NCBI GenBank assembly: GCA_965112155.1
Contig: OZ218100.1
From: Podarcis liolepis
Taxonomy: Eukaryota
Strand: one strand, 5' to 3'
DNA length: 64,000 nt
Shown here one piece after another: positions 5,954 through 51,372 of this stretch. Numbering within the stretch: position 1 is the stretch's first letter; the number at the start of each line of letters is the position of its first letter. The position numbers were made by a program, and so were the translations under genes. The notes under the pieces are model-generated. The model saw only the letters and a list, made by a program, of their open reading frames with translations, was not told where the DNA came from and ran no database searches.

Positions 5954-6303
5954 AAGGTAAAGGTAAAGGGACCACTGACCATTAGGTCCAGTCGTGACCG
6001 ACTCTGGGGTTGCGGCGCTCATCTCGCTTTATTGACCGAGGGAGCCGGCGTACAGCTTCTGTCTCATGTGGCCAGCTTGACTAAGCCGCTTCTGGTGAAC
6101 CAGAGCATCACACGGAAATGCTGTTTACCTTCCTGCCGGAGCGGTACCTATTTATCTACTTGCACTTTGACGTGCTTTCGAACTGCTAGGTTGGCAGGAG
6201 CAGGGACCGAGCAACAGGAGCTCACCCCGTCGCAGGGATTCGAACTGTCGACCTTCTGATCAGCAAGTCCTAGGCTCTGTGGTTTAACCATAGTGCCACC
6301 CAC
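5954..6303 (-). mobile_element. Sauria SINE
   Basis: tRNA-like head on the minus strand, (ACCTTT)n tail reading AAGGTAAAGGTAAAGG on plus, 8-bp TSD GTAGCTTA at 5946-5953 and 6304-6311. Confidence 0.92.
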
Positions 6304-12260: not shown

Positions 12261-13421
12261 CAATATTTCTCCTGAAAATCAAAGCTACTAATTCTAGCTA
12301 CTAACAGGTGGGCTACAGGTGCAGAACTTCAAATTTCCTTTATGTTAACAAGACTCTTAATGGAAACACTTGTCCATATAGGGGCTATAGGTCAAGCCCA
12401 TAATGGGATTCAAAAAGTAACATGAGCAAAGATCTGAGACTGGAGGATTCTGAAGAAAAAGAAAGAAAGAAAGAACCAAGAATGAAATGATCTAAGAAGA
12501 TTCAGAAATGTTTAACATTTTGTGTGTGGTGGTTATCATGGGGGCAACAACTTATTTACAGATTTCTAAGATTTTCTCCCATGAGAGTTGTAGACCTGAA
12601 GTGTCAAAACTTGTTTTGAGATAAGACAAAGAACTAACAGCAGGATCACGAAGCTTAGCCGTGCCTGTGCCAAGGCTTGTGGAAACAGCCCATTTTCAAT
12701 ATACATGCTCTGAAGCTTACTCAGACATTACCATAAATCATTCCCATATGAGCAACTTTCTGTTTGGGTAGCAGAGGGGAAATCTGTCAAAAGACACAAA
12801 AGCAGGCTTCAGTAGAAGTTAGGATATAATTGGGGTTGGAAAATAACCACACAGGATCTACACAGGCAGCACAATCTTCCATATGTTACATTAGGTTCTT
12901 GGACAGGTACGTGACCACTTTTGTTCTTGACCCTCATGGTCAAGGACATCTGGCAGGGAGAGGACTTTTAGCTGAACCGAGGAGGTAATGAATGCCTCTC
13001 TCAGAGACAGCGCGGTTCCAGACCATCTGACAGAGACAGCAGTGAGACCACTCTTTAAGAAGCCACCCTTAAAGTCAGAAGATTTAAACAAGTATAGGTC
13101 ATTTGCAAATATTCTATTCCTGAGAAAGAATGTGATAGAATATGCTTTTCTGTAGTAACCTTCCATTTATGGAAGGCTGTTGCCAGGGAGGCCCACCTGG
13201 TGCCAACCTTGTGATCAACGTTGATTTTGTTTTGTTGGGCATTTGGGCAGCGCCAATGGTACATTGTATTACAAAATCCAGTAGTAGCCGGCAGGGTGCT
13301 GCAGGTTGAGCTGTGTGGCTGGCCTGCCTTCCCAACACCACGGGTAATTGCCCCTTGCCAAGGGAGGCGGGAAGGGCAAGCCAGTGGGAACTCAGTGTGG
13401 TGCAGAAATAGCAGGGGTGTA

Positions 13422-13761
13422 GGAGACTCTTGAGAGTCCCATGGACTGCAAGAAGATCAAACCTATCCATTCTTAAGGAAATCAGCCCTTAATGCTCACT
13501 GGAAGGACAGACCGTGAAGCTGAGGCTCCAATACTTTGGCCACCTCATGAGAAGAGAATACTCCCTGGAAAAGACCCTGATGTTGGGAAAGACTGAAGGC
13601 ACAAGGAGAAGGGGACGACAGAGGACGAGATGGTTGGATAGTGTTCTCGAAGCTACCAGCATGAGTTTGACAAAACTGTGGGAGGCAGTGGAAGACAGAA
13701 GTGCCTGGCGTGCTCTAGTCCAGGGGGTCACGAAGAGTCAGACATGACTAAACAACAACAA
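13422..13761 (+). mobile_element. 5'-truncated Bov-B LINE 3' fragment
   Basis: Encodes KLRLQYFGHLMRRE.SLEKTLMLGK..., ends in an (AAC)n tail; near-identical to the reverse complement of 1-270. Confidence 0.92.
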
Positions 13762-16700
13762 AGCAGTGAGAGCAGTGGATTGGCTCTGCTGTGGTGCCCA
13801 CACTATGCTCCTGCTGCCTTGCCCCTCACCCTCTTCATAAGTGGCAGTGACATGAAGCATTGGAAAGGCAGGTCAGCAACACAGCCCCAACTACACGGCC
13901 AAACGCTGAAGGTTTATATATTTATTTCCCTTTATTTTATTTACTTTGGCTGTAAATTGCTTCAGGACTTATTCCGTGATGTATAAACTCAATCAGCCTA
14001 AACCTAGCATGGAAATGTGCACAGATGAACATGGAACATGCTTAGGCGCCTCTCATTCCCCCATGAAATAAAGAAATAAGCCCTCTTTAGATGTTCAGCT
14101 AAACATGTGGTGATTGAGTAGGGGAGCCATGTGCCAGCTCTGCCCCAACATCCCCAGGCATGCTGCTCCCTTCTGTTCAATTGCAACTTTCCCACATTGA
14201 ATGGAAAGATCTAACAGAGGCACTTTGAATATTCCCCATGATCAACTACCTCGCTAACAGAAAGCTCCTGACCATGGGGAGGTTTCTATGCACAGTCGTG
14301 TTTAGAAGCCTCTTTCAGGCCTTCCCACTCAATAAGAAAAAGCTGAAGGTGGAGTAGATGAGGACAGGAACATTGGGGATGGGCTCAGCACACTTGCTCC
14401 CTGCACAATTTATGCCTTCACAAGTTCAGCTGAATTTCTGCACAGGACATGGAACACATAATTTTAGAGTTCAATGCAGTTCAAGCTGGTGGTTCACCTC
14501 TAATGTTATTTCCATTGTAAAAGGCTCCTCAGAAAAGATACCCCACTACTTTGTGCAGAATGTTCAATCTAATTTAAGAACCTTATTCTTACACTGTGCC
14601 TATATATTGTTGATCAGTGATTAAGGAAGCCTCTACTTGAATAGGAAAGAATTGCGGAAAACCAATTTTTCCCTTTATTCACTTAAAATATTTATGAGTC
14701 ACTTTTCCGCCATAGGCACTCAAAGCAGTTTAGAACAAAGTAATCCAATTAAAAATAGTTGAAACCATAACAACAAATCTCAATCTACCACTAATTAATA
14801 ACAGCAGCAGCAGGTAAAAGAATTAAAAGGAGGGCGGGGGGAACATGACGCAACCACTATAATAAGATCAGACAGCACCAAAGGCCAAGTGAAGTAATCA
14901 GAATTGTGTGTGTGTTTGTGTGTGTATATCTCCAGCCTTCTAAATCTCCACAAATTGCTAGCCTGACAGACTTCCCTAGGAAGAGTATCCCATTACTGGG
15001 ACACCACCAAAGAAATGTACCTGTTTTGGATGTCAAGTTAATATCAATAAAGATCAGCACCCAAATCATGTCATTGATCTTAACCAGTAGGATCGTTCAG
15101 AGGAAGAGATGCTCATAAAGCTACAATGAACCCTCACCCTTCTCTGACCCCTTTGGCCCTTGTAGGAAAGGAGGTGGGGAAACTGGAGCCCTTCGGAAAT
15201 TGCTGGGCTGCAGCTCCTATAATTCCTAACCACTGGCCTGGCTGCCAAGTGCTGGTGGCAGTGACAATCTAGCAACATCTGAAGGTCCACAGGTTTCCCA
15301 ACCCTTTCACAGGACAACTCTGAAAGACATCTTGCATATGTTTCAAAGACTATTTAAACATATGTTTCTGAAACACTGTGTCATACTACTCTAGACAATG
15401 CTGATAATGTAGAGCATGAATTAAACACTAATGTCTTTGGTCAGGGATGAATAGTTTGCAAACCATGCAATAAATTTACCCTCCTTGTCTCCCACCCATT
15501 CTACCATTGTCTAAGTCCATGATAAATCAATGCAACTATTAAGGCATTGTCTGGTACATCAGGAGAATGTTACATTATGCAAAGTGTGTGGAATTTGTAA
15601 CCAAAGGCAATCAGACAAGAGACTCATCTGGAGCGCGTCTGGTGAAGAAGCTGGGGATGGGCAGGGGGTGGGAACCAAAGATTTTCATCTAAGGAACAAG
15701 AAGTGATTTTTCACCATCAATAGATACGCCTCCAATTGGTACACATCATCAGCTCAGTCAGTGAAAACTGGAAACCTGAATGAGAATGTCAAAGGAAGGA
15801 ATGTGTTCGTAAAAGAAACAAAACTAAACTGCAAAGCAAGTTTAACCCAGAAAATGTAAAGCTAAGTCACAAAATGGAAGTTAGCTTTACAGTTTCCCGC
15901 TATCAAATGGAAAGGAGATATTGTCAGGCCAAGGTGTTTGTTTTTTTTAAAAAAATCCGCACAGATGATGAAATTCTAGTTTTTATTCCTTCTTCAGAAA
16001 AGCCAGAACTTGCAGGAACTCAGTTCTGGCACCTCTCAGGTGGGTGCCATTGCCATGATAAGAGAAGAGGGGAGATGTTGATGGTGAGTTCTGGCACCTC
16101 ATTTTCAAGAAAAATAGCACTGAGAAAAGCTGGGTTATATTAAAGCACAGGATAACTTTACTAACAGAATAGGTCTTAACCAATGTAGCTTTGACCTATG
16201 GCATCCTATACTTGTGAACATAACTGATCCTTGTTTGGCATAGTTGTGATATGAGCAATTCTATGATTTGCTTTTTGTTAGGGTCAAAGTAGATGTGATG
16301 GGGCCATCATGTTTGTTTGTTTGTTTGTTACATCACATGGTGATGTTTAATGTTAGATTCAGGCAACTCTTTTTCCCTGCTATGCACTGACAAAATCAGT
16401 ACTTTATAATTTTAGGTCATGCTTGACAGATTTTTCCCATGTATGGTCAAAGGAGGCACAGAGCACAAGTCAGATTTCAATAGAAAATCCTACCTAGGAG
16501 AGTATTAACCCAAGTTAGCTTATATTTTTTATTAAAATATCAAATTAAAGGCAGTGGCTTTGTTAAAAGAATTTTTGTATTAAAAGGGTTTTATAATAAC
16601 CTTATCAGTGCCTATGAATTAAGTAGGCTTATCCTGAATGAAGAAAGGGGTTTTGTTGCTTTCTTTAGTTGGAGATTATGATAATTTTTTCCCTTCCAAA

Positions 16701-18745: not shown

Positions 18746-19544
18746 TTGCATGTGAAGGTCCCCAAGCCACCCCTAAAAATAATTCACAAATCACACATAA
18801 TTTTTGTTTAAGGTTTTTGGCATAATTTTGGCCACAACTTTATTAAAATACATAATCTGTGAGTGATTGGTTATGACTATCTGTCCCCCCGCCTGGGACA
18901 GAACTGACTTTCTGAACTCCTTCGGAAGCCAGTGAAGGGAAAACAATGTTGGGGATCAGTTGAGCTGAGCAACAGTCCCTCACCGCTCACCCAACCAGCT
19001 CCCCAAGGCTTGCTGGCCCTGGTCCCATTTCAGGGATTGGACGAAATCGTGGCAAGCCCCAGGATTCCTTTAACGGAATTCCCTTCCACACCACCATTGG
19101 AGGGGCAGGCGCAGCCTATCCTGACCCCTCCTCCACCAATTTTTATAATCAATGCCTAACCGCAACCTTACAAGTTCTGACGAATTGCCAAGTAATAGGC
19201 AAAAACCAAATGGCACCAGCCAATCAGCCAAATGGACAAAATTCCTACTAGCCCCCTGCCCCAATGGCAGACGACCCCATGACAGGCATGGCAAGATTAA
19301 CCGGAACACAGGGCGGGCGGGCGGGTGATCCGATGCACGCTGCGAAAGAGAAAGCAAAAGCAGAGTGCCCCCAATATTTAAAGCCTTTGGTCCCACCCAC
19401 CCAATTTGCAACATTCAATTTGCCCCAGCAACCCGGTCATCCAATCGTTGCTTCAGGCAATCTCCATTTAACCTGCCTGGCAACAGAGGGTTGGCCTTGC
19501 AGACCCCACCGCAACACATGCTCTCATTTCAGGGAGAACACGCT
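18746..19544 (-). mobile_element. Solo A-C-B terminal unit of a Ngaro-family YR retrotransposon (diverged subfamily)
   Basis: Reverse complement starts AGCGTGTTCTCC, contains the conserved C spacer and AATAAAGTTGTGGCCAAA, and ends ...CATGCAA. Collinear with 39606-40419; no ORFs. Confidence 0.9.
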
Positions 19545-20556: not shown

Positions 20557-20706
20557 NNNNNNNNNNNNNNNNNNNNNNNNNNNNNNNNNNNNNNNNNNNN
20601 NNNNNNNNNNNNNNNNNNNNNNNNNNNNNNNNNNNNNNNNNNNNNNNNNNNNNNNNNNNNNNNNNNNNNNNNNNNNNNNNNNNNNNNNNNNNNNNNNNNN
20701 NNNNNN
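20557..20706. other. Assembly gap (150 N)
   Basis: Run of n characters. Confidence 1.
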
Positions 20707-22225: not shown

Positions 22226-23025
22226 AGCGTGTTCTCCTTCATGAAGAGCACGTGTTGCGGTGGGGACTGACAAGACACCCCACTGTTGCTGGGTGGGAAA
22301 ATAATGTTGGTCACTTTACAATTGGGTTCTACCTGTTGCTGGGGAGATTTAAATATTGCCATTTTGTGATTGACAGCCATAGCCTTTATATGCCCTGCAT
22401 GCAGCGTTGAGCTTCCTCTTTTCACTGCGCGCATCACCCTCCCTCCCTCCGTTGATTCAGGGTTGTTCGCTTGACCTTGGTATGCCTGTCATGGGGCCAT
22501 CTGCTTTTGGGGCAGGGGCCCGGTAGGAATTTTGTCCATTTGGCTGGTTGGATGGTGCCATTTGGTTTTTGCCTACTGCGTAGCAAATTGTCACAACTTG
22601 TAAGGTTTCAGTTAGGCATTGGTTTTATGAAATGGTTGGTGGAGGGGTATGGATTGGCCGTGCCTGCCCCTCCAAATGCTGCTACTGCAAGGGTATTCCA
22701 TTAAAGGAATCCAGGGGCTCCCCATGCTTTTGTCCAAACCCCTGTTAAGGGGCTAGGGCCACGCAAGAGCCCCTGGGAGCAGTTGAGTGCATGGCACCCA
22801 GCTCCGTCTCTCTCCCCAAAACGTTTTCTCTTTCTGACTTTGCGGCCGGTTGAATGTCAGTCTGTCCCCGTGCGGGGTCAGATAGTCACAACCAATACCT
22901 AAGCAACCACTCACATTTCTTGTATTTCAATAAAGTTGTGGCCAAAGTTATGCCAAAAACCTTAAACAAAAATTACGTGTCAATTGTGTTTTATTGGTGG
23001 GTGTCTTGGGCACCTCGACACGCAA
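22226..23025 (+). mobile_element. Solo A-C-B terminal unit of a Ngaro-family YR retrotransposon (diverged subfamily)
   Basis: Starts AGCGTGTTCTCCTTC, carries the conserved C spacer and AATAAAGTTGTGGCCAAA, ends GACACGCAA. Collinear with 39606-40419. Confidence 0.9.
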
Positions 23026-24376: not shown

Positions 24377-25594
24377 GGCAAGTTCATATTAAGTAAATCC
24401 TTTTAGGTCACTTAGAATGGACTTTGGTCACTTATTTGTTAAGGTAAGACAGTGGAAGTGCATCTTGGGAAGGCAGGTAATTAAAGTTAAGAGGTAAGAA
24501 TTAGATGTGCAGGAAGAAGATGAAAGAGTGAAATTGGAAAATGCTGCGCAGGAAACCCAGACAAAATGGCATATTTCTTTCACTCCCCTCCCTCATATAT
24601 TATTATGAAATGCGGTAGATGTAGCCAGCTTCCACTGTAGTGTAGCACCAATGTGAAATACACACTCTACCAAGCTCACAATGACAGGGATTCTAGCTGA
24701 TATGAGTATCCTCAAATGATGCACTTCAAATATCTCACGAGACAGAAATTTGACATTCCTAAGGGAGATGCAGAAAGAGAGGGAAAAGGTTACATCCATT
24801 ATCACTACCTGAAGCTACGGCACCATTCCCATGCACTTCTTAATTCTTGCATTCACTTGTTACACTCCTAAAGGTACTCCACAAATACTTTGCAAAAGGC
24901 AGATATGTGCTAGGTGTCTGCATTCATTGCAGACCAGCCAGCTACATTTTGCAAGTACATTTGAACATGCTGTACTGAGTTTGTATCTGGGAAAAGTCAT
25001 TCTTTGGCAAAATCTGTCCATCTATTTTTTTTTCCCCCATCTGCTATGTGACATTTCATTCTGATGTAAATTCCAAACTTCCCCGGGGCCAAGAAAGATG
25101 AGAGTAATTGTTGCACATTTTTCTTAACCACTGTGTTTGGTCTGAGCAAAGCATGTTCTGTGAGGATGTGGTATTGGCTCTTTCTTATTACATGGTGGTT
25201 ATCGAGAAGAAAGGCATATCATAGGGAAAGGATTTACTGTTGTGTATTTAGTGTTAAAATGTTTAAATGCCGGGTCTTTCCATTATGCATTTATGCATGT
25301 ATCTTTTATAGTCTCATCCAAATAGTTAGGGTAGGCATAAGAATGATAAACAAGGAACAGAAACCATTTATACATTTTCTTCACTTAACCATTACATGCA
25401 GATCAAGGCCTGAGACCACCTAAGAGATGCATTCTTTTTTTATTATTTACTTGCATGCTTGTTTTAAGAAATTGAAAGGATATTTGCAGGAGAAAAGAAA
25501 TATGTGATGTGGGCATTTCAACTCCAGCAGACTCAGCTGAATGGGTTTTGAATGCAGTAGAAGAGCCTTTAAATGACAACCTAAGAACATAAGA

Positions 25595-26020
25595 TGGACC
25601 ATAAAGAAAGCTGATCGCCGAAGAATTGATGCTTTTGAATTATGGTGCTGGATGAGACTCTTAAGAGTCCCATGGACTGCAAGAAGATCAAACCGATCCA
25701 TTCTGAAGGAAATCAGCCCTGAGTGCTCACTGGAAGGACAGATTGTGAAGCTGAGGCTCCAATACTTTGGCCACCTCATGAGAAGAGAAGACTCCCTGGA
25801 AAAGACCCTGATATTGGGAAAGATGAAGGGCACAAGGAGAAGGGGACGACAGAGGATGAGATGGTTGGATAGTGTTCTCGAGGATGAGATGGTTGGATAG
25901 TGTTCTCGAAGCTACCAGCATGAGTTTGACCAAACTGTGGGAGGCAGTGGAAGACAGAAGTGCCTGGCCGTGCTCTGGTCCAGGGGGCCATGAAAAGTCG
26001 GACACGACTAAACAACAACA
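25595..26020 (+). mobile_element. 5'-truncated Bov-B LINE 3' fragment
   Basis: Bov-B C-terminal coding sequence, (AAC)n tail, 12-bp TSD AAGAACATAAGA at 25583-25594 and 26021-26032. Confidence 0.93.
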
Positions 26021-26360
26021 AAGAACATAAGAACCACCTGCTGGATCAATGTTCTCACAGTGGCCACCCAGATGCCTGTTGGAAGGCCACAAGCTGGAAT
26101 TGACAGCAACAGCACTGCCCACCTGTAATTTCTAGCAACTGGGATTCAGAGGCATTCTGCCTCTAACAGTGGAGGCACACCATAGCTGTCATGTCTAGTA
26201 GCCTCTGATAGCCTTGTCCTTCCTCTTTTGTCTCATCCTCTCTTAAAACCATCCAAGTTGGTGGCCATCACCGCCTCCTTAGGGTGAGAGTTTCATATGT
26301 GCTGTGTGAACAAGTACTTCCTTTTTACTGTCCTGAATCTTCCAACATTCAGTTTCATTC
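26021..26360 (-). mobile_element. CR1-type LINE 3' end remnant; related copy at ~28850-29110
   Basis: Inverted tail AAGAACATAAGAA followed by CTGCTGGATCA...GTTCTCACAGTGGCCA.CCAGATG, shared with 28850-29110. Family assignment is from recollection of lizard CR1 ends. Confidence 0.6.
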
Positions 26361-30800: not shown

Positions 30801-33134
30801 GTTTTAAAATAAATATTGGTCTCCATGTATTCCCCCGCCATCAATTGAAATCACTTGCCAAATGTGTTGTGCATATTCCAATCTTGACGTCTTTTAATCA
30901 CTTGCAATCTGTAATCCTCCTCATGTGGGAAGTGCAGGATAGAAATCAAATTCAATCAAAACAAACACAAACAAGTATAAACTTTTAGGCTTTTTGCCGG
31001 TAGTTTATGAACATTCCTGATAGCAGATAATTGTTAGCGATGGGGGAACACGCTTGTCTCAGGGGCATAGCCCACAATTCTCGACCTTTCAGTACCAGTT
31101 AGTGCTGGAAAATGAAGATAATGATTCCTAGTCAATTGGTGTGTCACACAACCCTGCCACCTTTCCTATCCTGCTGTACCAGTTTACAGCAAAAGCATAA
31201 CTATGCCTAACTCAGAAGGAAGTCCTGTTGAACTCAATAGTGCCTACACACGAGTAAGTGGGGATTGGAGTGTGATGCACTGGAAAATCCCAAACAAACC
31301 TAGGGTCCTGGATGCCGTGTGGTCCAGCAGCCACAACTGCCAAAACTGGCTAGAATAATCCCTCCCAGCCATTGAGAACAATTCATCCAAGACTAGATTT
31401 AAATCATGTTTCTTTCATTGACTCACTACTAGGTGGTCTTGCATGTAGGGCAAACTGGTTATAAACAAGCCGATGAGTAAGAAAAGAAGCCTCCATTTAT
31501 TACATTTCAAACTCTTTCCTAAGGCTTGAGGCAGGAAATGGATTTTTTTCATCTGGTTGAAAGGGACCTGGAAAAGCCGCAATGCCTGAGGTATGCTCAT
31601 CCAGCTATGCTTTCTCACGGACAAGCGTTCGATTGTACAGTTTTGTAGCTTTTCGAGAATTTCAAAACCTCTTAACCTGTTTGTTCAAGGATGATAATGG
31701 GGGGGGGGGGGAGTTCATTCAACAAGTGTGCAATTCAACAGATGAAATGGTGTGTAAGTCAACAGGTGTGCACTCTTTCCCCCAAACAGTTGTACATGTG
31801 TAGCGACAGTTTGTGTTCAACGTAACATACAGGCAAGCCTGTTAGAGAGAGAGAAAAAAAATAAATTGAACATATAACCAACCACATCTTGTGTCACCAT
31901 AACAGGGCAGTGGCATGTTCAGAGACCAAGTACATGCTTTCATGTATAGGGTCCAAAGTTCAATATCTGCCCAAAATGGGGGCAGGTGATGGGACATATC
32001 TTGTAGGGGAGGGTGTCAGGCCAATCAACATAGAGAAAATGGGGAACTTGAGAACTTCCAGATGTTGCTGGACTACAGCTCTCCCTCTCGCCAAGTATTG
32101 GCCATGCAGGCTGGGAATTATGGGAGTCCACCAACATCTGGAGAGCCATAAGCTTCCCACCACTGTTTTAAATGTTCTCAAGAACCATTGTCTGTTTTTA
32201 ATACCTTTTCTCAAGGACTGATTCATGGTTATGAGTAATACATTCAGAAATAGGTTAAGTACCATTTACGCACCAGTTTTATATCTATCATCTTCATTAA
32301 AATGTGCATTTCTTTGTAATGCTCCCTGGGACACAATATGCATTTCTTATGTGGTTCTCACTGCTCAGCAAGTTTCCCACTTCTATTCTATATAGACCAC
32401 ACTTATAAAATACCACAGATGTCTATTTCAAAAGGTTACCATTTCTCTCAGTGTATCCATTTTCAAATTAAATGTGACCAACCACTTAGAAATACAAGCA
32501 AGGAAACTTACTTGCATTAATTTAATTGAGAGTAAATAAACAAACAGAACACACGAGTTCAACACAATTCACTCATCACTGAACAGGATTAACAACTTCC
32601 TTCTTCAAGGAATAATGAAGGCAGCATTTTAAAGGGTATCCCCTGGGTATAGCTATAATTTTCAAAATTAGAATATTGGTAAACACTTCTTTTTAAGACC
32701 ATCAATTATTTTCTTGGCACAGCAACACTTCCAAGCATGTAAAGAACCACTGCATTGTGATGGTTCTATTTAAGCATTTCTTTAATTGGATCATTAAATG
32801 CTGTTGTTTTAATATCAATTTTCTTAATGCTACCGGGCAGGTTGGTATCAGACTTTGTGAAATAAGGTCACTTCCCCTCCACAGTCTGCACCTTCTGAAA
32901 AAGCAGGCAAATATGCTTTTCATTACTGAGTAATGGGGTTAAGGGGGAAAAAACAATATAAAATTGGAAAGTGGGATTTTGCCATCTCCTTCCACAAATA
33001 TGTAATGATTCAAGGTTAAGAATGCAATCCTATACTCACTTTCTTGGGAACAGACCCCACTAAACTCAATGAGGTTTAATTCAGAGTGGTGCTCAACTGG
33101 AGTTGTCTCCCTGGCAAGGCCTTCTTGGTGGCAG

Positions 33135-33349
33135 GGCGTGTTCTCCTTCAAAATGAGAGCACGTGTTGCGGTTGGGAGAATACAAGCCACCCTGCTGTTA
33201 CTAGGCAGTTTTGGATAAAGGCAGAATCCTTAAAGGGTTAATTGAGTTACTGGGGAGTTTAGCACGTTGCCAATTTCTGGAGGAGGGCAGAGGCTATAAA
33301 TACAGGTCGCTTACGTCAGGGCGTCCTCTTGGCCTCTGCATTGGATCAC
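33135..33349 (+). repeat. Split direct repeat A1 (215 bp)
   Basis: Matches 39606-39820 except one T/C difference (33342 vs 39813). Confidence 0.97.
33295..33318 (+). promoter_or_regulatory. TATA box (TATAAATA) and downstream CRE-like TTACGTCA in repeat A; duplicated in A2 at ~39766-39789
   Basis: Motif about 50 nt before the end of A; the solo copies have TTTAAATA at the equivalent position. Confidence 0.6.
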
Positions 33350-33549
33350 GGAGCAGATCGTGTCTGGAGCCGGTTGTATTTTAAGCGTATATTTTCGCTG
33401 CTTCTAATTACTGCTTGTTTTCTCTTAAGTCCCCTTCTGCCTTTGTTCCTTCCTCCTTTTGTCTTAATTCCCTCCCACACTCCCTCCCTTTATTTTCCCG
33501 TTTATTTGCCTACCTTTTCCTGAGTTAATTTTAATTGTGTTTAAACAGC

Positions 33550-34130
33550 GTTTTACCGGGAGTGGACTCCGCCCCCCCCCCAGCCCGGGGGAGGCTTTCC
33601 TCCCGGCCTCGGGGAAGCCCCCGCGCTCTTACCGGGCCGCGGCCCACTCTTCCATTCCCCCCCTCCAAGCTCCGTAGTTGCGGAGCGCCCCCGGGGAACC
33701 CTCCTCCTTCCCTCCCACCGCCGCGTGGCCGGCGCTTACCTGGATTCACTGCGTGGGTGGCCGGATTAGGCCCTATTCTCTCCTGGGGGCCGTTACCGCG
33801 TGCGGCGGTCTCCCGGCGTTCCAGGCCGGGCCCGCGCGGCTGCGCCACGGCGCCGAGGGAGCGCTTGCCGGCGGGGTTTCCACAGGCCTCATTTTGAGCG
33901 CTTGAACGGCCCGCCTGTCCCGCGCTAACGCGCAAGGGCTTGCCGGACCCGGGGTGTCGTCGCCGCTGCGGCCTGAGCCCGCTGCGGCCTGGTAACATTT
34001 TTGCTGCGTAATCCCGGTTAGCTCCGCCATTTTCTTTGTGTCTTGCCGGCGTGGTGCTCCCCCTGGTGGCGCTGAGGGGTACTGCGCCTCTGTTGGATTG
34101 ATTGAGGAGCTAGGCCGCACCTCCTTCCTA
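33550..34130. promoter_or_regulatory. CpG island in the Ngaro leader with YY1 (34024-34033) and CTCF (34056-34070) motifs
   Basis: Very high GC/CpG content; CCGCCATTTT; GCTCCCCCTGGTGGC (reverse complement GCCACCAGGGGGAGC). Confidence 0.55.
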
Positions 34131-34285
34131 CCCCCCCTGCTGGCCGTTTGGGTACTGCACCCTGTCTATTTGCTTTATTTAAGCTGGTCAAGCATAATTG
34201 TTGCCTGGTATTGTTTTTTCTTGCCTCTGGGCCGGCTCTGAGGCCTCACAGGTTGGCTCCAGCGCTTAGGAGAGTTTAGTTAGTG

Positions 34286-34286
<1 letters not shown>

Positions 34287-34319
<33 letters not shown>
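34287..34319. repeat. (GATA)n microsatellite inside the Ngaro leader
   Basis: Direct reading. Confidence 0.9.
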
Positions 34320-34525
34320 TAGTTATTTAGACATACCTTTGGGCTAACATTTGGCCAAGAGTTATTATTTATTTATAACTTCTGCATAGATTGCAATTGA
34401 AGAGGGCTACTGAGTAGTAGCTGGTGGTAGGCCCAACAGTGGGTAGTGGTTGGAGGTTGCTAGCGGTTTATCTGCTGTATTGCTGGGAATTTAACTGGTT
34501 TTGATTTTATTTCCTGCTAGCAGGT

Positions 34526-36052
34526 ATGGCTCCAAAGAAAGCTGCTGCTCGCTCCAGCTCTGCTATCACTTCAAAACGGCCTATTAGAGGTCCATCCCAG
34601 GCGCTTCGTTCACCCCCTTCCAGCCAACCAGTGGGGCGAGTGCAATCATTGGTGGAAGGCATGGCCGGTGACCCTGCAGCTTTATCTCGCTTCGCAGCGG
34701 ATTTGGACGCCTTCTTGCAGCATCGTTCCGCCCAACCGTCCACATCTGGAAGGCTGCCCTCCTCAACATTGGTGGCGTCTACGGTTTCATCATCATCTAG
34801 CGAGGATGAGGGGGAGGGATCGTCGCCACAGGGTTTAATTTTGAATCCACAGTTATCCCAGTCCCCTGATGTACCTGCAATTCGGAACCAGCCTCGGAGG
34901 TCGGGCCGCCTCTCCGGGCGGGCCTCCAGAAAAAGTGCCCCTTTGGCCGCATCCACTCGCCGGCGTACGCCCGCCCGGTCTCCCACGGATGGGGCATCCG
35001 CTTCTGGTATCTCACGTGTTCTCTCTATGCAGTCTGTTTCAGTTCCGCCTCAACCGAATCCCGATTCGGAGTCCTCTAACGAAGACAGTCTACCGGTCCC
35101 TGCCAGGAGGTCGCTGGGAGGGAAGCGTCGCCACAAGAGGTCATCCCGAAAGCGTGCAAAGCGGAGGAAGGATGACTCTTCTTCCTCTCTTTCGGGTACG
35201 TCTTCCTCTAGTTCTGACGATGAGGGTAGTCATATGGAACTTTATTGGGGTTTTGGCGAATCGGTTTCAGGGCTTCCTCGGTGGGCTTGGGAGCGCAGGT
35301 CCAACACGCATCGGGCGAAATATGGAGCTGTTCAGGAATGCAGGGATGGCGTGTTGGTTCCTGACGTTAAAGTCTCAACTAACTCGGCCAGGGACATCAT
35401 TCCGGGCTCACATTTGTCATCGAAATTGCGTTCCCGGATATTAAATGGACGTTACGTGGACATGTTCAAACTGGCCCCACCTTCTGAGGAACAAGAGAAG
35501 GGGAGTGTTTCAACCAAAAAACGCTCAGGGGTCTCTGCGGCAGGCAGGACTTTTGAACATTGGCTTGACTCCTTTCAGGTCTTTGCTGGTATAGTTATGG
35601 CAGCCTATCCGCGTAGGTCCCTTCATTTGTTGGTTTATTTATCCATCGTGCGCTCTGCCTTTACCAAGGCTGGGGAAAAAGCTGCGATCAAATATGATGA
35701 GAATTTTAGGCGTCGTGCGGCTAAGATTCCCTCCGCACGCTGGGATCGGAAAGATCTAGATGTGTGGACTACTTACGTGGCTCCGCTTATTGACAAAAAG
35801 GTGCCGGAGCAACAGAAATTGGGTATCTCTCCTTTTAGGCCTGGCCGTCGGTTGCCTTGTTGGGATTTTAACAGGGCTTCTTGTCAGCGTTCAACATGTA
35901 GATTTGCGCACACTTGTGAGAAATGCAATGGATTGCATCCGGCTTCCTCTTGTTTTGGTGGGCGGCGGCCCTTTCGTGGAGGAAAAGGGGGCTCTCAACA
36001 ACCCCCCAAGTCAGTCCCCCCCACACCCTCAACCTCAGGTACAGCAAAATAA
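34526..36052 (+). CDS. gag: Ngaro ORF1, Gag-like protein (508 aa)
   Basis: Ser/Arg-rich N-terminus with a basic NLS-like patch, YDENFRRR core, C-terminal CX7CX4CX3H and CX2CX3HX4C zinc fingers; first AUG after the promoter. Confidence 0.88.
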   Translation: MAPKKAAARSSSAITSKRPIRGPSQALRSPPSSQPVGRVQSLVEGMAGDPAALSRFAADLDAFLQHRSAQPSTSGRLPSSTLVASTVSSSSSEDEGEGSSPQGLILNPQLSQSPDVPAIRNQPRRSGRLSGRASRKSAPLAASTRRRTPARSPTDGASASGISRVLSMQSVSVPPQPNPDSESSNEDSLPVPARRSLGGKRRHKRSSRKRAKRRKDDSSSSLSGTSSSSSDDEGSHMELYWGFGESVSGLPRWAWERRSNTHRAKYGAVQECRDGVLVPDVKVSTNSARDIIPGSHLSSKLRSRILNGRYVDMFKLAPPSEEQEKGSVSTKKRSGVSAAGRTFEHWLDSFQVFAGIVMAAYPRRSLHLLVYLSIVRSAFTKAGEKAAIKYDENFRRRAAKIPSARWDRKDLDVWTTYVAPLIDKKVPEQQKLGISPFRPGRRLPCWDFNRASCQRSTCRFAHTCEKCNGLHPASSCFGGRRPFRGGKGGSQQPPKSVPPTPSTSGTAK

Positions 36053-37658
36053 GGTGCTGACTTCCTTGGCCCAGACTCCCATACGTCTGCCGGCCCTTAA
36101 AAAGTGGCTCAGGTTTTACCCAGATAGGGAGGCCGCTCGTTACCTGAGCGATGGTTTTTCTGTTGGTTTTCGGATTCCAGTAGCCATGCCCCCCGTGGCT
36201 CGGAATTCGGCTAATCAGAAATCAGTTCGTGAATTGCCCGAAATTGCCCGAAAAAAGATCACAAAGGAGGTGGCTATGCATCGGATGGCTGGCCCCTTTT
36301 GTGCCCCTCCATTTCCAAAATTGCATGTTTCCCCATTGGGCATCGTGCCAAAGAAAGCCCCTGGTGAATTCCGTTTGATTCATAATTTATCACACCCTAG
36401 GGGTACTTCAGTTAACGATGTGATTCCTCCAGAGCTTTGCTCAGTTAAGTATGCCTCTCTTGATCACGCGATCAAGATGATTCGAAAATTTGGACCAGCT
36501 GCTTTATTGGCAAAATGCGACATAGAGTCGGCATTCCGTTTGCTGCCGATTCATCCTGAGGATTTTTGGCTGCTCGGTTTCCAGTTTGAGGGAAAATACT
36601 ATTTTGACAAAGCCATGCCCATGGGTTGTTCAATAGCGTGCGCAGCTTTTGAATCTTTCAGCACCTTTTTGGAATGGGCCCTCAAGTTGAAAACCGGGTT
36701 GGATGGGGTTACTCATTATTTGGATGATTTTTTATTGGCTTCTGATTGTAATACTGACAATTGCTCGGTTCTGTTGCGTGCTTTAGCTGCCCTTACTGAG
36801 GAAATAGGGGTCCCGTTAGCGGCGGAAAAGACTGAGGGTCCCTCGACTCAGCTTACGTATTTGGGTATCCTTTTGGATACGGTGTCTCAAACTTCCAGCT
36901 TGCCTAAGGATAAGCTGGTGGCTTTAAAAAAGGTTATAGAGGAATTGCTTCCCTTAAAGAAGGTGTCCCTACTGCAAATCCAATCGCTGTTAGGTCACCT
37001 GAATTTTGCCTGTAGGGTGGTGGCCCCGGGTCGCCCCTTTTGCTCTCGTTTGGCTCGCCTCACGGTGGGCTTGAAGGCCCCGCATCATCGTGTCCGTCTT
37101 TCTAGGGAGGTGAGGGCTGATCTCAGCATATGGCTTGAATTTTTGGAGGAATTCAATGGGGTATCGCTATGGCAAGACACTTTGAACTTGCAGAACGATT
37201 TTCAGGTGCATTCAGACGCAGCAGGGTCCCAAGGTTTTGGCCTATATTGGATGGGCAGGTGGTGTGCCAAGCGCTGGCCTCTTGATTGGCAGGGAACAGC
37301 CATTACGCGGGACCTAACTTTTCTTGAGTTCTTTCCCATTGCAGTGGCAGTGCACTTGTGGGTCGAAGAGTTCAGGGACCGACGCGTCTGCTTCTGGACT
37401 GATAACCAGGCGGTGGTGAATGTGCTGGCCAAGCTGTCGTCCCGCTCTCCTAGGGTGTCGGCCCTTTTGCGGGCTTTTGTTTTACATTGTTTACGTTATA
37501 ACATAGTGTTTTCTGCTCGTTTTGTTCCGGGGGTGTCTAACGAAATTGCCGATGCTCTGTCCCGTTTTCAGATGGAGCGGTTCAGACTTCTGGTTCCAGA
37601 GGCTCGGAAACGTCCGGAATGTTTCCCGGATCATCTCTGGAGCCTTGGCAGGAGCTAG
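35760..37658 (+). CDS. pol: Ngaro ORF2, reverse transcriptase/RNase H (true start uncertain)
   Basis: RT motifs PKK..G.FRLIHNLS, KCDIESAF, MPMG, YLDDF; RNase H motifs SDAAGS.G.G, LEFFP, TDNQ, NEIADALSR. Confidence 0.95.
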   Translation: MCGLLTWLRLLTKRCRSNRNWVSLLLGLAVGCLVGILTGLLVSVQHVDLRTLVRNAMDCIRLPLVLVGGGPFVEEKGALNNPPSQSPPHPQPQVQQNKVLTSLAQTPIRLPALKKWLRFYPDREAARYLSDGFSVGFRIPVAMPPVARNSANQKSVRELPEIARKKITKEVAMHRMAGPFCAPPFPKLHVSPLGIVPKKAPGEFRLIHNLSHPRGTSVNDVIPPELCSVKYASLDHAIKMIRKFGPAALLAKCDIESAFRLLPIHPEDFWLLGFQFEGKYYFDKAMPMGCSIACAAFESFSTFLEWALKLKTGLDGVTHYLDDFLLASDCNTDNCSVLLRALAALTEEIGVPLAAEKTEGPSTQLTYLGILLDTVSQTSSLPKDKLVALKKVIEELLPLKKVSLLQIQSLLGHLNFACRVVAPGRPFCSRLARLTVGLKAPHHRVRLSREVRADLSIWLEFLEEFNGVSLWQDTLNLQNDFQVHSDAAGSQGFGLYWMGRWCAKRWPLDWQGTAITRDLTFLEFFPIAVAVHLWVEEFRDRRVCFWTDNQAVVNVLAKLSSRSPRVSALLRAFVLHCLRYNIVFSARFVPGVSNEIADALSRFQMERFRLLVPEARKRPECFPDHLWSLGRS

Positions 37659-38542
37659 TTTTTCAGGGAGTAATGGCTTCTATTTCCCCTTCTACTCTCA
37701 GGTCATACACCAAAGCATGGACTGATTTTTTGTCCTTTACATATCAGCCAGCCGGGGAGCAAAGGTGGACTTCCCCCTCCACTTCTCAGGTGCTAAAATA
37801 TTTGGCGCACCTGTTTCAGTTGGGACGTGCAGCTAAGACGCTAAGAATTCAGGCAGCTGCTATTGCCTTTTTCTGCAAAGCTTATTTCGACAAAGATCCT
37901 TGCGCTAAGTTTGCCGTGCGTAAGGCCCTGGAGGGATGGGGTAGGCTTTGTCCTTCCCAGCCAGCTACTAGGCACCCTATCTCATATGATTTGCTGTGCA
38001 AGATGCGCAAAGAGTTGAGGAAGGTTTGCTGGTCCAGGTATGAGGCTCGCCTTTTTTCTGCGGCCTTTTCTATTGCTTTCTTCGGAGCACTAAGGGTGGG
38101 TGAGCTCGTATGGGAGGAGCACAAAAATGGCCGTTCTAGGGGATTATTGCTTCAGGATGCGCAGCTATCTCCGGATGAGCTGAGACTCCTCATTAGGAAC
38201 TCAAAAACGGATCAGGGTGGAAGGGGAGCCCTCATTCGTCTCCCGGCTACAAGGGAGGTGGGACCGTGTCCGGTCAAAGATGTCAGGAAGTACTTGTCCA
38301 TCCGGGCCCCGGGGGAAGGTCCACTGTTGCAGCATGAAGATGGGTCGCCTCTGTCTAGGCGACAGTTTGCAAGGGTGATGCGGAAGGCCATTGCGGCTTG
38401 TGGTGATTCTGCTAGTGGTTTTGCCCCACACTCTTTCAGGATTGGGGCTGCCACGACGGCAGCGCATTGGGGCCTGTCTGCAGGCAGAATAAAGAATTTG
38501 GGTCGCTGGAAGTCGAACGCGTTTCGAGGCTATGTTCGCTAA
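37619..38542 (+). CDS. Ngaro ORF3, tyrosine recombinase
   Basis: Complete catalytic set: R (ALRVGEL), K (SKTDQ), HxxR (HSFRIG), W (GRW), Y (FRGYVR). Confidence 0.95.
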   Translation: MFPGSSLEPWQELVFQGVMASISPSTLRSYTKAWTDFLSFTYQPAGEQRWTSPSTSQVLKYLAHLFQLGRAAKTLRIQAAAIAFFCKAYFDKDPCAKFAVRKALEGWGRLCPSQPATRHPISYDLLCKMRKELRKVCWSRYEARLFSAAFSIAFFGALRVGELVWEEHKNGRSRGLLLQDAQLSPDELRLLIRNSKTDQGGRGALIRLPATREVGPCPVKDVRKYLSIRAPGEGPLLQHEDGSPLSRRQFARVMRKAIAACGDSASGFAPHSFRIGAATTAAHWGLSAGRIKNLGRWKSNAFRGYVR

Positions 38543-38576
38543 CATGATGTTTTTTGTATTTTGTTGTCTATACCAG

Positions 38577-39151
38577 GTTTAGCAGCCGTACGCATATGGA
38601 TGGTGGGGCACAGTATCGTACATTGGGCCGGCGTTGGAGCCAGGCAGCTCAGATTGGGACCAGGTCTTGGCCTTCCTCCTCACGTGCACGTATCTTGGCT
38701 GGCCAGAAGGGGAATGTCCTGGACAGAGTTTCTGCCACTGATTCGTAGGCAGCTGGCTGAGAAAGGGTCGCCCACGGCCATCGTGGTGCAGCTGGGTGAG
38801 AATGACCTGGTTTCTATGGACTGTGCTTCGTTACGTGCAGCTATCCTGGGTGATCTTGAAGTGCTGCGAGCAATGGTGCCGGCAGCAAAAATTTTCTGGT
38901 CAAAGCTTTTGCAAAGGCGCAGTTGGAGAGGCAGTCGTTGCCCAACTGCCACCGAAAGGGCTAGGAAGCGGATCAATTCGGCGGTCTCAAAAAAGGTTTT
39001 TGAGTTGGGAGGTGACGTGATTTCCCATCCTGAGATTCTGGCCAGGGATGAATCACTTTTCAGAGATGATGGGGTGCATCTTTCAGCTTTAGGGAACAAG
39101 GCGTGGCTGGGTGCTGTGGTGGCTAAGCTAAGGTCTTGGCTGGGTTTGTGA
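38577..39151 (+). CDS. Ngaro ORF4, SGNH/GDSL hydrolase (esterase), probably entered through a splice acceptor at 38576/38577
   Basis: Block I WMVGHSI, block II RRG, block III QLGEND, block V DGVH; open to TGA at 39149-39151; no AUG upstream of the block I strand. Confidence 0.85.
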
Positions 39152-39179
39152 GTGGTTTGGCGGCGAGCGTAGGGCTCCA

Positions 39180-39605
39180 TTGGCGGTTAGGCATTGGTTA
39201 AAATTGGTTGGTCGAGGGGTAAGTGCCTACCCCTCCAATGGTGGTGTGAAAAAGGGAATTCCGTTAAAGGAATCCAGGGGCTTGCCATTCATTCGTCCTT
39301 GTCCCCGGAGTCGGACCTGGGCCGTGCAAGCCCCACAGGAACATGAGGGTGAGAGGTGTGGGACTGTTACCCAGCTTCACCTTCTCACCCAATACTTGTT
39401 TCCCAGGCTGGCTTCCGCTGGAATCCGGAAGGCCAGCCCTGTCCATGGGCGAGGACAGATAGTCATAACCAATGCCTAAGCAACCACTCACGTATTTGTA
39501 TTTTAATAAAGTTGTGGCCAAAATCATGCCAAAAACCTTAAACAAAATTAACGTGTGAAGTGTGAATTATTTGGTGAGGGTGGCTTTGTGGGACTCAACA
39601 CGCAA
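39180..39605 (+). repeat. Split direct repeat B1 (426 bp)
   Basis: Identical by eye to 39994-40419 (offset 814). Confidence 0.97.
39505..39510 (+). terminator. Polyadenylation signal AATAAA in B1; second copy at 40319-40324 in B2
   Basis: AATAAAGTTGTGGCCAAA is conserved in all four B copies and followed by a GT-rich tract. Confidence 0.6.
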
Positions 39606-39820
39606 GGCGTGTTCTCCTTCAAAATGAGAGCACGTGTTGCGGTTGGGAGAATACAAGCCACCCTGCTGTTACTAGGCAGTTTTGGATAAAGGCAGAATCC
39701 TTAAAGGGTTAATTGAGTTACTGGGGAGTTTAGCACGTTGCCAATTTCTGGAGGAGGGCAGAGGCTATAAATACAGGTCGCTTACGTCAGGGCGTCCTCT
39801 TGGCCTCTGCATCGGATCAC
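39606..39820 (+). repeat. Split direct repeat A2
   Basis: Copy of 33135-33349. Confidence 0.97.
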
Positions 39821-39993
39821 CCGCCCACCCTCCCTTTTATAAGGGGGGGTTTCTGGTTATTTGACCTTGCTATGCCTGTCATGGGGTCGTCCGCCTTGGT
39901 GCGGGGGCCTGGTAGGAATTTACCATTTGGCTGATTGGCTGGTGCCATTTGGGTTTCGCCTACTGCGTAGCAAATAAGTCACAACTTGTAAGG

Positions 39994-40419
39994 TTGGCGG
40001 TTAGGCATTGGTTAAAATTGGTTGGTCGAGGGGTAAGTGCCTACCCCTCCAATGGTGGTGTGAAAAAGGGAATTCCGTTAAAGGAATCCAGGGGCTTGCC
40101 ATTCATTCGTCCTTGTCCCCGGAGTCGGACCTGGGCCGTGCAAGCCCCACAGGAACATGAGGGTGAGAGGTGTGGGACTGTTACCCAGCTTCACCTTCTC
40201 ACCCAATACTTGTTTCCCAGGCTGGCTTCCGCTGGAATCCGGAAGGCCAGCCCTGTCCATGGGCGAGGACAGATAGTCATAACCAATGCCTAAGCAACCA
40301 CTCACGTATTTGTATTTTAATAAAGTTGTGGCCAAAATCATGCCAAAAACCTTAAACAAAATTAACGTGTGAAGTGTGAATTATTTGGTGAGGGTGGCTT
40401 TGTGGGACTCAACACGCAA
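39994..40419 (+). repeat. Split direct repeat B2
   Basis: Copy of 39180-39605. Confidence 0.97.
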
Positions 40420-40890: not shown

Positions 40891-41096
40891 TAAAATACAG
40901 TAGTCTGTTCAGTTGCAATCCTTTTTAGTGCAGAAGGGTGCAATAACCTGTTTGTTTTTTTAAGGGTCTGAATGAGCACTGGCATATCTATCTCTACCTG
41001 CCTATATATACCTGCATATATCTGTAGCTATACTCATGCACACATATATATTCAAAATATGCATTTCTTACTGTGTTTTGTACGTGCACACACATT

Positions 41097-41437
41097 AAAG
41101 TTAAAGGGACCCCTAACCATTAGGTCCAGTCGTGACCGACTCTGGGATTGCGGCGCTCGTCTCGCTTTATTGGCCGAGGGAGCCAGTGTACAGCTTCCGG
41201 GTCATGTGGCCAGCATGACTAAACTGCTTCTGGCGAACCAGAGCAGTGCACGGAAACGCCATTTACCTACCCGCTAGAGCGGTACCTATTTATCTACTTG
41301 CACTTTGACGTGCTTTCAAACTGCTAGGTTGGCAGGAGCAGGGACCGAGCAACAGGAGCTCACCCAGTCGCAGGGATTCGAACCGCCGACCTTCTGATCA
41401 GCAAGTCCTAGGCTCTGTGGTTTAACCCACAGCGCCA
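41097..41437 (-). mobile_element. Sauria SINE
   Basis: Closely similar to 5954-6303 over its full length. Confidence 0.92.
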
Positions 41438-51034: not shown

Positions 51035-51372
51035 AGGTCAAGGGACCCCTGACCATTAGGTCCAGTCGTGGCCGACTCTGGGGTTGCGGCGCTCATCTTG
51101 CTTTATTGGCTGAGGGAGCCAGCGTACAGATTCCGGGTCATGTGGCCACCATGACTAAGCCACTTCTGGCAAACCAGAGCAGTGCACGGAAATGTCGTTT
51201 ACCTTCCTGCTAGAGCGGTACCTATTTACCTACTTGCCCTTTGACGTGCTTTCAAACTGCTAAGTTGGCAAGAGCCGGGGTCGAGCAATGGGAGCTCACC
51301 CCGTCATGGGGATTCAAACTGCCGACCTTCTGATCGGCAAGTCCTAGGCTCTGTGGTTTAACCCACAGTGCC
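51035..51372 (-). mobile_element. Sauria SINE
   Basis: Closely similar to 5954-6303 and 41097-41437. Confidence 0.92.

Follow-up and report, generated by a model that had tools for sequence, protein, structure and literature searches.

The stretch of DNA analysed here (hereafter the window) comprises 64,000 nucleotides (nt) of contig OZ218100.1 in assembly GCA_965112155.1 of the lizard Podarcis liolepis, and it carries at positions 33135-40419 a structurally complete lacertid Ngaro retrotransposon of recent insertion, i.e. a retrotransposon that encodes a tyrosine recombinase (YR). This identification, in which the class is assigned by structure, is virtually certain. The element itself is a fresh member of an already known family, and the novelty lies in its predicted expression plan, in which a ribosomal slip and alternative splicing would join the product of the first open reading frame (ORF) to the other encoded enzymes. 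We judge the full explanation, a recent Ngaro with such a slip and splice plan, to be likely. The parts of the element, including the predicted signals, are the following, where RT denotes the reverse transcriptase, aa amino acids, and ORF1N the N-terminal piece of the ORF1 product.

33135-40419, + strand: whole Ngaro element, in the order A1, four ORFs, B1A2, spacer, B2; 7,285 nt
33135-33349, + strand: A1 repeat, 215 nt, with TATAAA at 33295
33350-34525, + strand: GC- and CpG-rich leader, CpG observed/expected 0.79
34526-36052, + strand: ORF1, Gag-like, 508 aa (stop-free frame 34505-36052), with a basic Ser/Arg-rich N-terminal 223 aa, a helical core, a CCCH finger and a CCHC knuckle
35193-35201, + strand: predicted phase-1 splice donor in ORF1, exon end at 35195 after 223 codons + 1 nt
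35760-37658, + strand: ORF2, RT and RNase H, in the +1 frame relative to ORF1
35969-35977, + strand: predicted +1 slip site CCC_UUU_CGU from ORF1 into ORF2, fusion of 1043 aa
37541-38542, + strand: ORF3, tyrosine recombinase
37549-37571, + strand: predicted phase-1 acceptor for the recombinase, within the RNase H codons L-S-R-F-Q; ORF1N-YR of 546 aa
38543-39151, + strand: ORF4, SGNH/GDSL hydrolase with complete S, G, N and D-x-x-H motifs
38554-38576, + strand: predicted phase-1 acceptor for the hydrolase; ORF1N-SGNH of 414 aa
39180-39605, + strand: B1 repeat, 426 nt, with AATAAA at 39505
39596-39612, + strand: internal B1/A2 junction, candidate recombinase attachment site
39606-39820, + strand: A2 repeat, 215 nt, with a second TATAAA at 39766
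39821-39993, + strand: unique spacer between A2 and B2, 173 nt, candidate cis signal
39994-40419, + strand: B2 repeat, 426 nt, with AATAAA at 40319

The two B repeats are identical over all 426 nt, and the sole difference between A1 and A2 is T at 33342 against C at 39813, a CpG-to-TpG change. The CpG observed/expected ratio is 0.69 in the element and 0.23 and 0.22 in its two flanks. A preliminary description made from the sequence alone had reported the equality of B1 and B2, the single CpG difference between the A repeats and the preservation of CpGs, all of which we find as described, and its boundaries at 33135 and 40419 are exact; it made no mention of the spacer. The structure agrees with the definition of Ngaro in its split direct repeats, the order of gag-like, RT/RNase H and YR frames on one strand and the internal repeats 3' of YR, and the SGNH hydrolase ORF after YR, which the definition allows as an option, is present. 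The element has no terminal inverted repeat, the longest reverse-complement match of A or B being 14 nt, and no direct repeat is common to the left and right flanks at the element junctions, i.e. there is no target-site duplication. No methyltransferase domain follows RNase H in a Pfam search with E up to 0.1, and ORF2 ends 30 aa past the last RNase H motif. A PAT-like element would also have split direct repeats, but was rejected for want of the methyltransferase domain, and a DIRS-like element was rejected because inverted terminal repeats and an internal complementary region are lacking. The split repeats, the ORF order, and the Pfam matches and motifs given below thus agree with the Ngaro identity first proposed. 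The B repeat further contains a perfect 14-nt inverted repeat (40001-40014 with 40280-40293, also present in B1) and five CCAAT boxes, both strands counted.

All four ORFs are stop-free on the + strand and all of their motifs could be located, so that the earlier claim of four uninterrupted frames with full catalytic motifs holds. With residues counted from stop to stop, the RT motifs are D254 and YLDD at 320-323, those of RNase H D486, E523, D548 and D598, those of YR R185, K222, H297-x-x-R300, W323 and Y331, and those of the SGNH hydrolase S24, G57, N87 and D176/H179; in line with established knowledge, we take these residues to be catalytic. The only Pfam match passing the curated cut-off was RVT_1 in ORF2 (7e-13), while zf-CCCH (E 0.036), Phage_integrase together with its N-terminal domain (about 2e-4) and GDSL lipase (2e-6) were found below it. 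ORF1, ORF3 and ORF4 share one frame, and ORF4 directly follows the ORF3 stop. The core of ORF1 (35225-36013), which has 3022 relatives at E up to 0.001, was modelled with a pLDDT of 81 as three long helices followed by two zinc sites; Foldseek searches of PDB and of viral models with this fold gave no match at E up to 0.001, and the best VIA-align Z was 4.3; the zinc knuckle is present. The Atlas matches of this core are unnamed eukaryote clusters. No sequence match to ORF4 was found among solved structures at E up to 1, one chance match aside, and no relatives were found among viral contigs. The nearest labelled RT proteins are from Podarcis muralis (86-91%) and Zootoca vivipara, and in a tree computed in its quick version only, with locus L079 omitted as short, the RT falls among lacertid, then other squamate, then amphibian proteins. 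Two RT homologues (P0090 and P0098, 47%) come from short contigs labelled as a Candidatus Thiodiazotropha symbiont bin, and are probably animal host DNA in that bin.

The divergence between the repeats, one difference in 641 positions, amounts to 0.16% (95% interval 0.004-0.87%), which under an assumed rate of 2e-9 per site per year gives an insertion age of about 0.4 million years, with an upper bound near 2 million. The differing position 33342 sits downstream of the predicted transcription start, so the difference may have been inherited from the parental copy rather than acquired after insertion. Four sequencing runs were compared with positions 31200-39605, and the flank evidence comes from contigs of two of them. 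The left-flank contig of run X1 (organism A, 3182 nt) corresponds to 31200-33134 and has, beyond that, a minimum of 57 letters that are not A1; in that of run X3 (organism B, 1630 nt), letters 1-1356 match 31805-33134 and are followed by 274 more letters, again not A1. Since both matches end at exactly 33134, the insertion site appears to be empty in these two related runs. Two points weigh against this reading. The letters past 33134 in both contigs are known by number only, hence the empty site is an inference, and the X1 flank differs from that of the window at 18 of 1935 sites, which indicates that X1 is another individual or lineage. The raw-read runs X21 and X22 have zero depth on the flank and are therefore uninformative about polymorphism. 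X1 also contains a 313-nt contig identical to 33578-33890 of the leader, in addition to a second, more distant variant; the subfamily is therefore present at other sites. The insertion is recent and apparently not fixed in relatives. The youth claimed in the preliminary description is thus borne out by the near-identical repeats and the flank breaks, and the contrary outcome it had named, fixation in relatives with no near-identical paralogues, is not what the break at 33134 and the X1 paralogue indicate. Whether an element with this sequence would still be mobile today is a question on which we put even chances.

Between 33320 and 34525 the leader contains no ATG at all, compared with a mean of 12.0 and a minimum of 5 in 1000 dinucleotide shuffles, and such an AUG-free leader of 1.2 kb fits scanning to the ORF1 start. 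A pyrimidine-rich, acceptor-like site at 34501-34523 ends two bases 5' of the ORF1 ATG, and no strong splice donor was found in the leader.

The signal proposed for the synthesis of RT resembles that of influenza PA-X, in which tRNA-Phe slips from UUU to UUC with CGN in the A site at a frequency of about 1% (PMC3498833). The sequence CCC_TTT_CGT is the sole in-frame TTT_CGN in ORF1, where it reads PFR, and it reads PFV in ORF2; at the same position close relatives have PFR in ORF1 and PF[V/A/G/E] in ORF2. To place it in the family, 80 metagenome loci with RT relatives (L001-L080) were used, from which 9 without ORF1, 3 without the knuckle, 17 near-duplicates, 4 with another offset and 3 with no overlap were removed, leaving 44 distinct loci. 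ORF2 is +1 to ORF1 in 63 of the 69 analysable loci, the window included, and a -1 slip is ruled out by this offset. Over the whole overlap, TTT_CG is the top in-frame 5-mer and occurs in frame in 34 of the 44 loci, compared with 3 and 5 in the other frames. When the protein was kept fixed and the codons were redrawn, 18.7 loci were expected and the maximum in 2000 draws was 30; in a stretch of equal size upstream of the overlap the motif was found in 12 of 37. Phe-Arg is coded as TTT_CGN in 45 of 60 cases in the overlap versus 73 of 180 elsewhere (Fisher p 5e-6), a bias that is not explained by protein selection. As expected if ORF2 needs to be open only from the slip onward, 29 of the 34 loci have their first motif within the opening third of the overlap. 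The A-site codon is CGU in 19 of 34 and the E-site codon is not conserved, while 17 of the 24 clusters formed at 60% RT identity have the motif, the window included. Moreover, Phe-Arg was found in 66 of 123 post-knuckle ORF1 tails, compared with a shuffled mean of 21. As with PA-X, an in-frame UUU_CGN with an open +1 ORF is seen together with nucleotide conservation beyond the need of the protein. The stop of ORF1, which reads AAA_TAA in this copy, was rejected as a candidate slip site, with AAA before the stop in only 5 of 45 loci.

Several observations weigh against such a slip. The first test, confined to the post-knuckle stretch, gave the motif in only 6 of 44 loci, and the test was subsequently extended to cover all of the overlap; 10 of the 44 relatives have no such motif. 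In the present copy the site comes late, after 0.72 of the overlap; ORF2 is open for 212 nt further upstream, with ORF2-frame ATGs at both 35760 and 35928 and an acceptor of compatible phase at 35838. In a wide set of RT proteins, the residue after Phe showed no excess of GNN coding (37 of 98 versus a background of 34%). Finally, the metagenome relatives are not independent, and their split repeats are mostly collapsed and unconfirmed. Taking both sides together, we consider a +1 slip at UUU_CGN in the family quite probable, and its use at 35972 in this copy fairly probable, somewhat less so than in the family.

The recombinase and the hydrolase, on the other hand, would be reached by splicing. 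The donor at 35195/35196 is joint-best in consensus among the 84 GT of ORF1 and best among the 35 in phase 1, and the two acceptors precede ORF3 residue 11 (37571/37572) and ORF4 residue 12 (38576/38577), both in phase 1. Lizard gene models end their common first exon at the predicted donor. Hydrolase-containing protein models exceeding 335 aa number 28, and in 18 of them, from 17 loci of P. muralis, P. raffonei and Zootoca, a basic, Ser-rich tail of ORF1 type is attached to residue 12 of ORF4; several have a length of 413-414 aa compared with the 414 aa predicted. Isoforms X1 and X2 of Zootoca LOC118082278 have the same 207-aa N-terminus joined to YR or to SGNH, respectively, and a P. muralis gene model has 544 aa compared with the 546 aa predicted for ORF1N-YR. 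The predicted ORF1-YR join was found in 5 of 23 lacertid YR models by script and in two more by eye. In raw metagenome contigs with 37-52% RT identity, the Gln that follows RNase H motif AD.LSR.x is encoded by CAG in all 34 of 34 cases (36 distinct sites, 2 of them without Gln), compared with 292 of 661 elsewhere in ORF2. Likewise, in 20 of 23 distinct loci the best YAG before the hydrolase motif is a phase-1 site, located 14-29 nt 5' of the catalytic motif, and 13 of the 23 have no in-frame Met. The donor phase in relatives (12, 3 and 0 of 44 for phases 1, 0 and 2) is confounded by Gly GGT codons and was not counted. Against the splice plan stand at least 16 of the 23 lacertid YR models, which begin otherwise, and 4 of the 28 hydrolase models, which join YR to SGNH in another way (of the remainder, 5 are host-type and 1 is ambiguous); on a crude pyrimidine score, moreover, the two acceptors are not outstanding among the 74 YAG sites of the element. 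Three independent lines, namely the hydrolase models, the YR models together with the two-isoform locus, and the raw contig DNA, nevertheless point the same way, and on the sequence evidence it is highly probable that the ORF1 N-terminus is spliced from one phase-1 donor both to YR and to SGNH. The evidence therefore favours frameshift and splice fusions with ORF1 over the four separate units of the preliminary description.

It is conceivable that the splice plan holds but that RT/RNase H arises from a third splice, from 35195 to the acceptor at 35838, or from the internal AUG at 35760, with Phe-Arg kept for the sake of the protein. ORF2 is indeed open from 35760, and the RT homologues P0004 and P0008 are homologous from about there; the TAG acceptor at 35838 is pyrimidine-rich, in phase 1 in ORF2, and scores equal to the YR acceptor; one Zootoca model (P0005) has the N-terminus of ORF1 fused to RT; and an ORF2-frame ATG precedes RT in 32 of the 44 relatives. 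In the other 12, however, no such ATG exists, and none of the 120 RT homologues listed continues from an ORF1 match into ORF2 around residue 27. Protein selection is also insufficient for the Phe-Arg codon bias of the overlap, and the PFR and PF[V/A/G/E] readings are retained by close relatives at the slip position, so that we regard this explanation as unlikely. A more radical explanation would be that the copy is intact but silenced, that its ORFs are translated separately by leaky scanning, reinitiation or stop read-through, and that the apparent signals are artefacts of gene prediction or composition. The common frame of ORF1, ORF3 and ORF4 and the abutment of ORF4 on the ORF3 stop would suit separate translation, and gene predictors do bridge ORFs, the ORF1-ORF2 joins varying among models. 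But the CAG and phase-1 patterns were read in raw contig DNA and are independent of gene models, the first Met of ORF4 lies only two residues before the catalytic motif, and one and the same ORF1-ORF4 join, which passes over 3.4 kb of open frames, is seen at 17 loci; this explanation is very improbable.

Under the slip and splice plan, the expression and replication of the element might proceed as follows. Given the TATAAA at 33295, transcription probably starts near 33325; the RNA would start late in A1, cross the AUG-free leader and end in B2. Unspliced RNA would give ORF1, and a few ribosomes would slip +1 at UUU_CGU to make ORF1-RT/RNase H, while the single phase-1 donor and the two alternative phase-1 acceptors would fuse the basic 223-aa N-terminus to the recombinase or to the SGNH hydrolase. 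Both enzymes would thereby carry a common tag, which would probably serve RNA binding or the loading of particles. With TATAAA positioned late in A and AATAAA in B, both ends would be missing from an RNA that runs from late A1 to mid B2, and by analogy with the DIRS model the internal B1/A2 junction of the RNA would serve as their one template. The junction has 7-bp perfect inverted arms around a 3-nt core, at which the recombinase would insert the cDNA without target-site duplication, and A-spacer-B solos would be left behind in large numbers. We offer these replication details, which rest on analogy, only tentatively. The circular intermediate invoked in the preliminary description is likewise a model, as DIRS-1 cDNA is reported to be mostly linear and single-stranded (PMC7192593). 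The three insertion sites in the window read AG/C, AA/C and AA/C across the break, in agreement with a 3-nt core of the kind present at the B/A junction (n=3). Apart from the young copy, two solos are present:

18746-19544, - strand: solo A-spacer-B of a related subfamily, 75% identical to 39606-40419, with no ORFs adjoining
22226-23025, + strand: second solo A-spacer-B, 71% identical both to 39606-40419 and to the first solo

When the window's three copies are compared, the 3' 133 nt of the spacer are 85-89% conserved and the poly(A) block 88-93%, compared with 49-58% for mid-A, in blocks delimited after viewing the alignment; this blockwise conservation makes the spacer a likely cis signal. 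The region 39797-40010 folds with a z of -2.7, but the consensus fold of the three spacers has a covariation term of only -0.43, with 3 of 47 pairs compensatory, and gives no evidence of structure. The spacer has no long complementarity to the rest of the element, and Rfam gave no match at E up to 1. The raw reads of X21 (35) and X22 (79) match almost only B, covering 4 of 30 and 6 of 30 bins, respectively, and the contig depths are 65.6 for the flank, 87-109 for the leader and 236,406 for the B end in X1, and 10, 11 and 51,178 in X3; as contig depths are not copy numbers, these give a hint of B excess only. The solos might alternatively be non-autonomous elements that use the enzymes of full copies, either through their own TATA box and poly(A) signal or after excision between two cDNA B/A junctions. 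Two solos of different subfamilies with exact ends within 64 kb, reads nearly confined to B, and a spacer and ends conserved blockwise among solos and young copy would fit this idea, and the same question is open for SIRE derived from the Trypanosoma element VIPER (PMC6681497). On the other hand, recombination of A1 with A2 yields an identical structure and is the published reading of the solo AB repeats in Cafeteria (PMC8547959), a solo RNA would lack the internal B/A junction needed for the restoration of ends, and the excess of B reads would also arise from conserved blocks that collect many subfamilies at 90% likeness. We thus think it rather unlikely that the solos are mobile units of this kind.

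Potentially active four-ORF Ngaros with 100% identical repeats have been described in Xenopus (PMC9210276), so the rarity implied by the preliminary description was overstated. Like the present element, they have the structure A1-[gag, RT/RH, YR, SGNH]-B1A2B2, no methyltransferase and identical repeats, and, as far as the sequences tell, potentially active copies and recent amplification; unlike them, the present element resides in an amniote host, has a B of 426 nt rather than 152, and has abutting instead of overlapping ORF3 and ORF4. The Xenopus paper does not mention splicing and gives the hydrolase no function. Ngaro types 1-4 of Cafeteria burkhardae also have split direct repeats and scattered solo AB repeats, but differ in having three ORFs and 10-25 copies per strain, and the main text reports neither frameshift nor splicing (PMC8547959). 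In SIRE/VIPER of Trypanosoma cruzi, likewise, a short A-internal-B unit, the mobility of which is open, derives from a split-repeat YR retrotransposon, yet they belong to another superfamily in a kinetoplastid host (PMC6681497). DIRS-1 of Dictyostelium (PMC7192593) and DIRS1-like elements (PMC3266345) share with the proposed scheme YR integration at a 3-bp junction, as described for DIRS1-like elements (PMC3266345), without target duplication, but their inverted repeats, internal complementary region and methyltransferase are all absent in the lizard element. The proposed slip is akin to the influenza A PA-X site UCC_UUU_CGU (PMC3498833) and the amalgavirus UUU_CGN (PMC5052127) in the re-pairing of UUU_C in the P site, CGN in the A site with CGU the commonest, the +1 frame and, by analogy, a polymerase made at a low level; it would differ in having a retrotransposon as its user and in its E-site codon, which is not conserved. 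The predicted ORF1N-SGNH is comparable to ZfL2-1 ORF1p of CR1/L2 long interspersed elements (LINEs), which has a basic arginine-rich stretch and a catalytically complete SGNH domain in one chain and has been proposed to target membranes (PMC3905857), except that in the lizard YR element the fusion would arise through splicing. Among elements with long terminal repeats, extra ORFs made by splicing are a usual feature (PMC5408684). A full-text literature search that did not extend to the main reviews and Repbase found neither splicing or programmed frameshifting in Ngaro nor a lacertid Ngaro study, and the same was true of PMC9210276, PMC8547959, PMC3783388, PMC3266345, PMC6681497 and part of PMC5009743. 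One paper calls Ngaro absent from lizards (PMC4746887), contrary to the Ngaro homologues that are annotated across squamates as unnamed genes.

A homologue of ORF4 was found in 26 of the 80 metagenome loci, with D-x-x-H in 20 of the 23 distinct ones, and the hydrolase is therefore not confined to amphibian-like elements. In lacertids, P0139 (P. muralis, XP_077789831.1) and P0141-P0143 (Zootoca) are long host-type models that end in a Ngaro SGNH exon with the same Gly join, and P0143 carries the label zinc finger protein 638-like; the Ngaro SGNH at the end of P0140 is another one, in which the His is present (85% to P0137). The host-joined exon is 84% identical between Podarcis and Zootoca, compared with 68-74% for the host part, and in both genera DGVN replaces DGVH, so that the catalytic His is lost. 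ZNF638 reportedly helps to silence retroelements, and it is possible, judging from these models, that the SGNH exon in the ZNF638-like host gene represents a domestication. More generally, animal Ngaros may share a PA-X type UUU_CGN slip from Gag to RT and alternative phase-1 splicing of the Gag N-terminus to YR or SGNH, which would rebuild a CR1/L2-like ORF1p-esterase, and the same acceptor may have let the ZNF638-like lacertid gene capture and retain a catalytically dead copy of this esterase; to this wider proposal we would give no better and no worse than an even chance.

The rest of the window contains the following features.

1-1368 (- strand), 13418-13763 and 25592-26023: internally deleted LINE pieces, mutually related, with an endonuclease-type frame, presumably RTE/BovB-like
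5958-6298, 41096-41437 and 51035-51372: three copies of a 340-nt repeat, 88-91% identical, which we take to be Sauria-SINE-like
20557-20706: run of 150 N, an assembly gap between the two solos

The element alone, without its expression signals, would be ordinary. The expression of ORFs in YR retrotransposons, the role of the extra hydrolase and the rebuilding of the ends are presented as open in PMC9210276, PMC6681497 and PMC7192593, and the predicted junctions and slip site bear on them in a form that is exact, small and testable. The lizard family appears to leave many solos with a TATA box and a poly(A) signal, and to have donated an exon to a host gene model. If the splice plan is true, the recombinase and the hydrolase share a basic N-terminal tag, and work on the bare ORFs would be done with the wrong proteins. 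A genuine slip site, for its part, would extend to a widespread class of nuclear mobile elements a signal that is known chiefly from RNA viruses.

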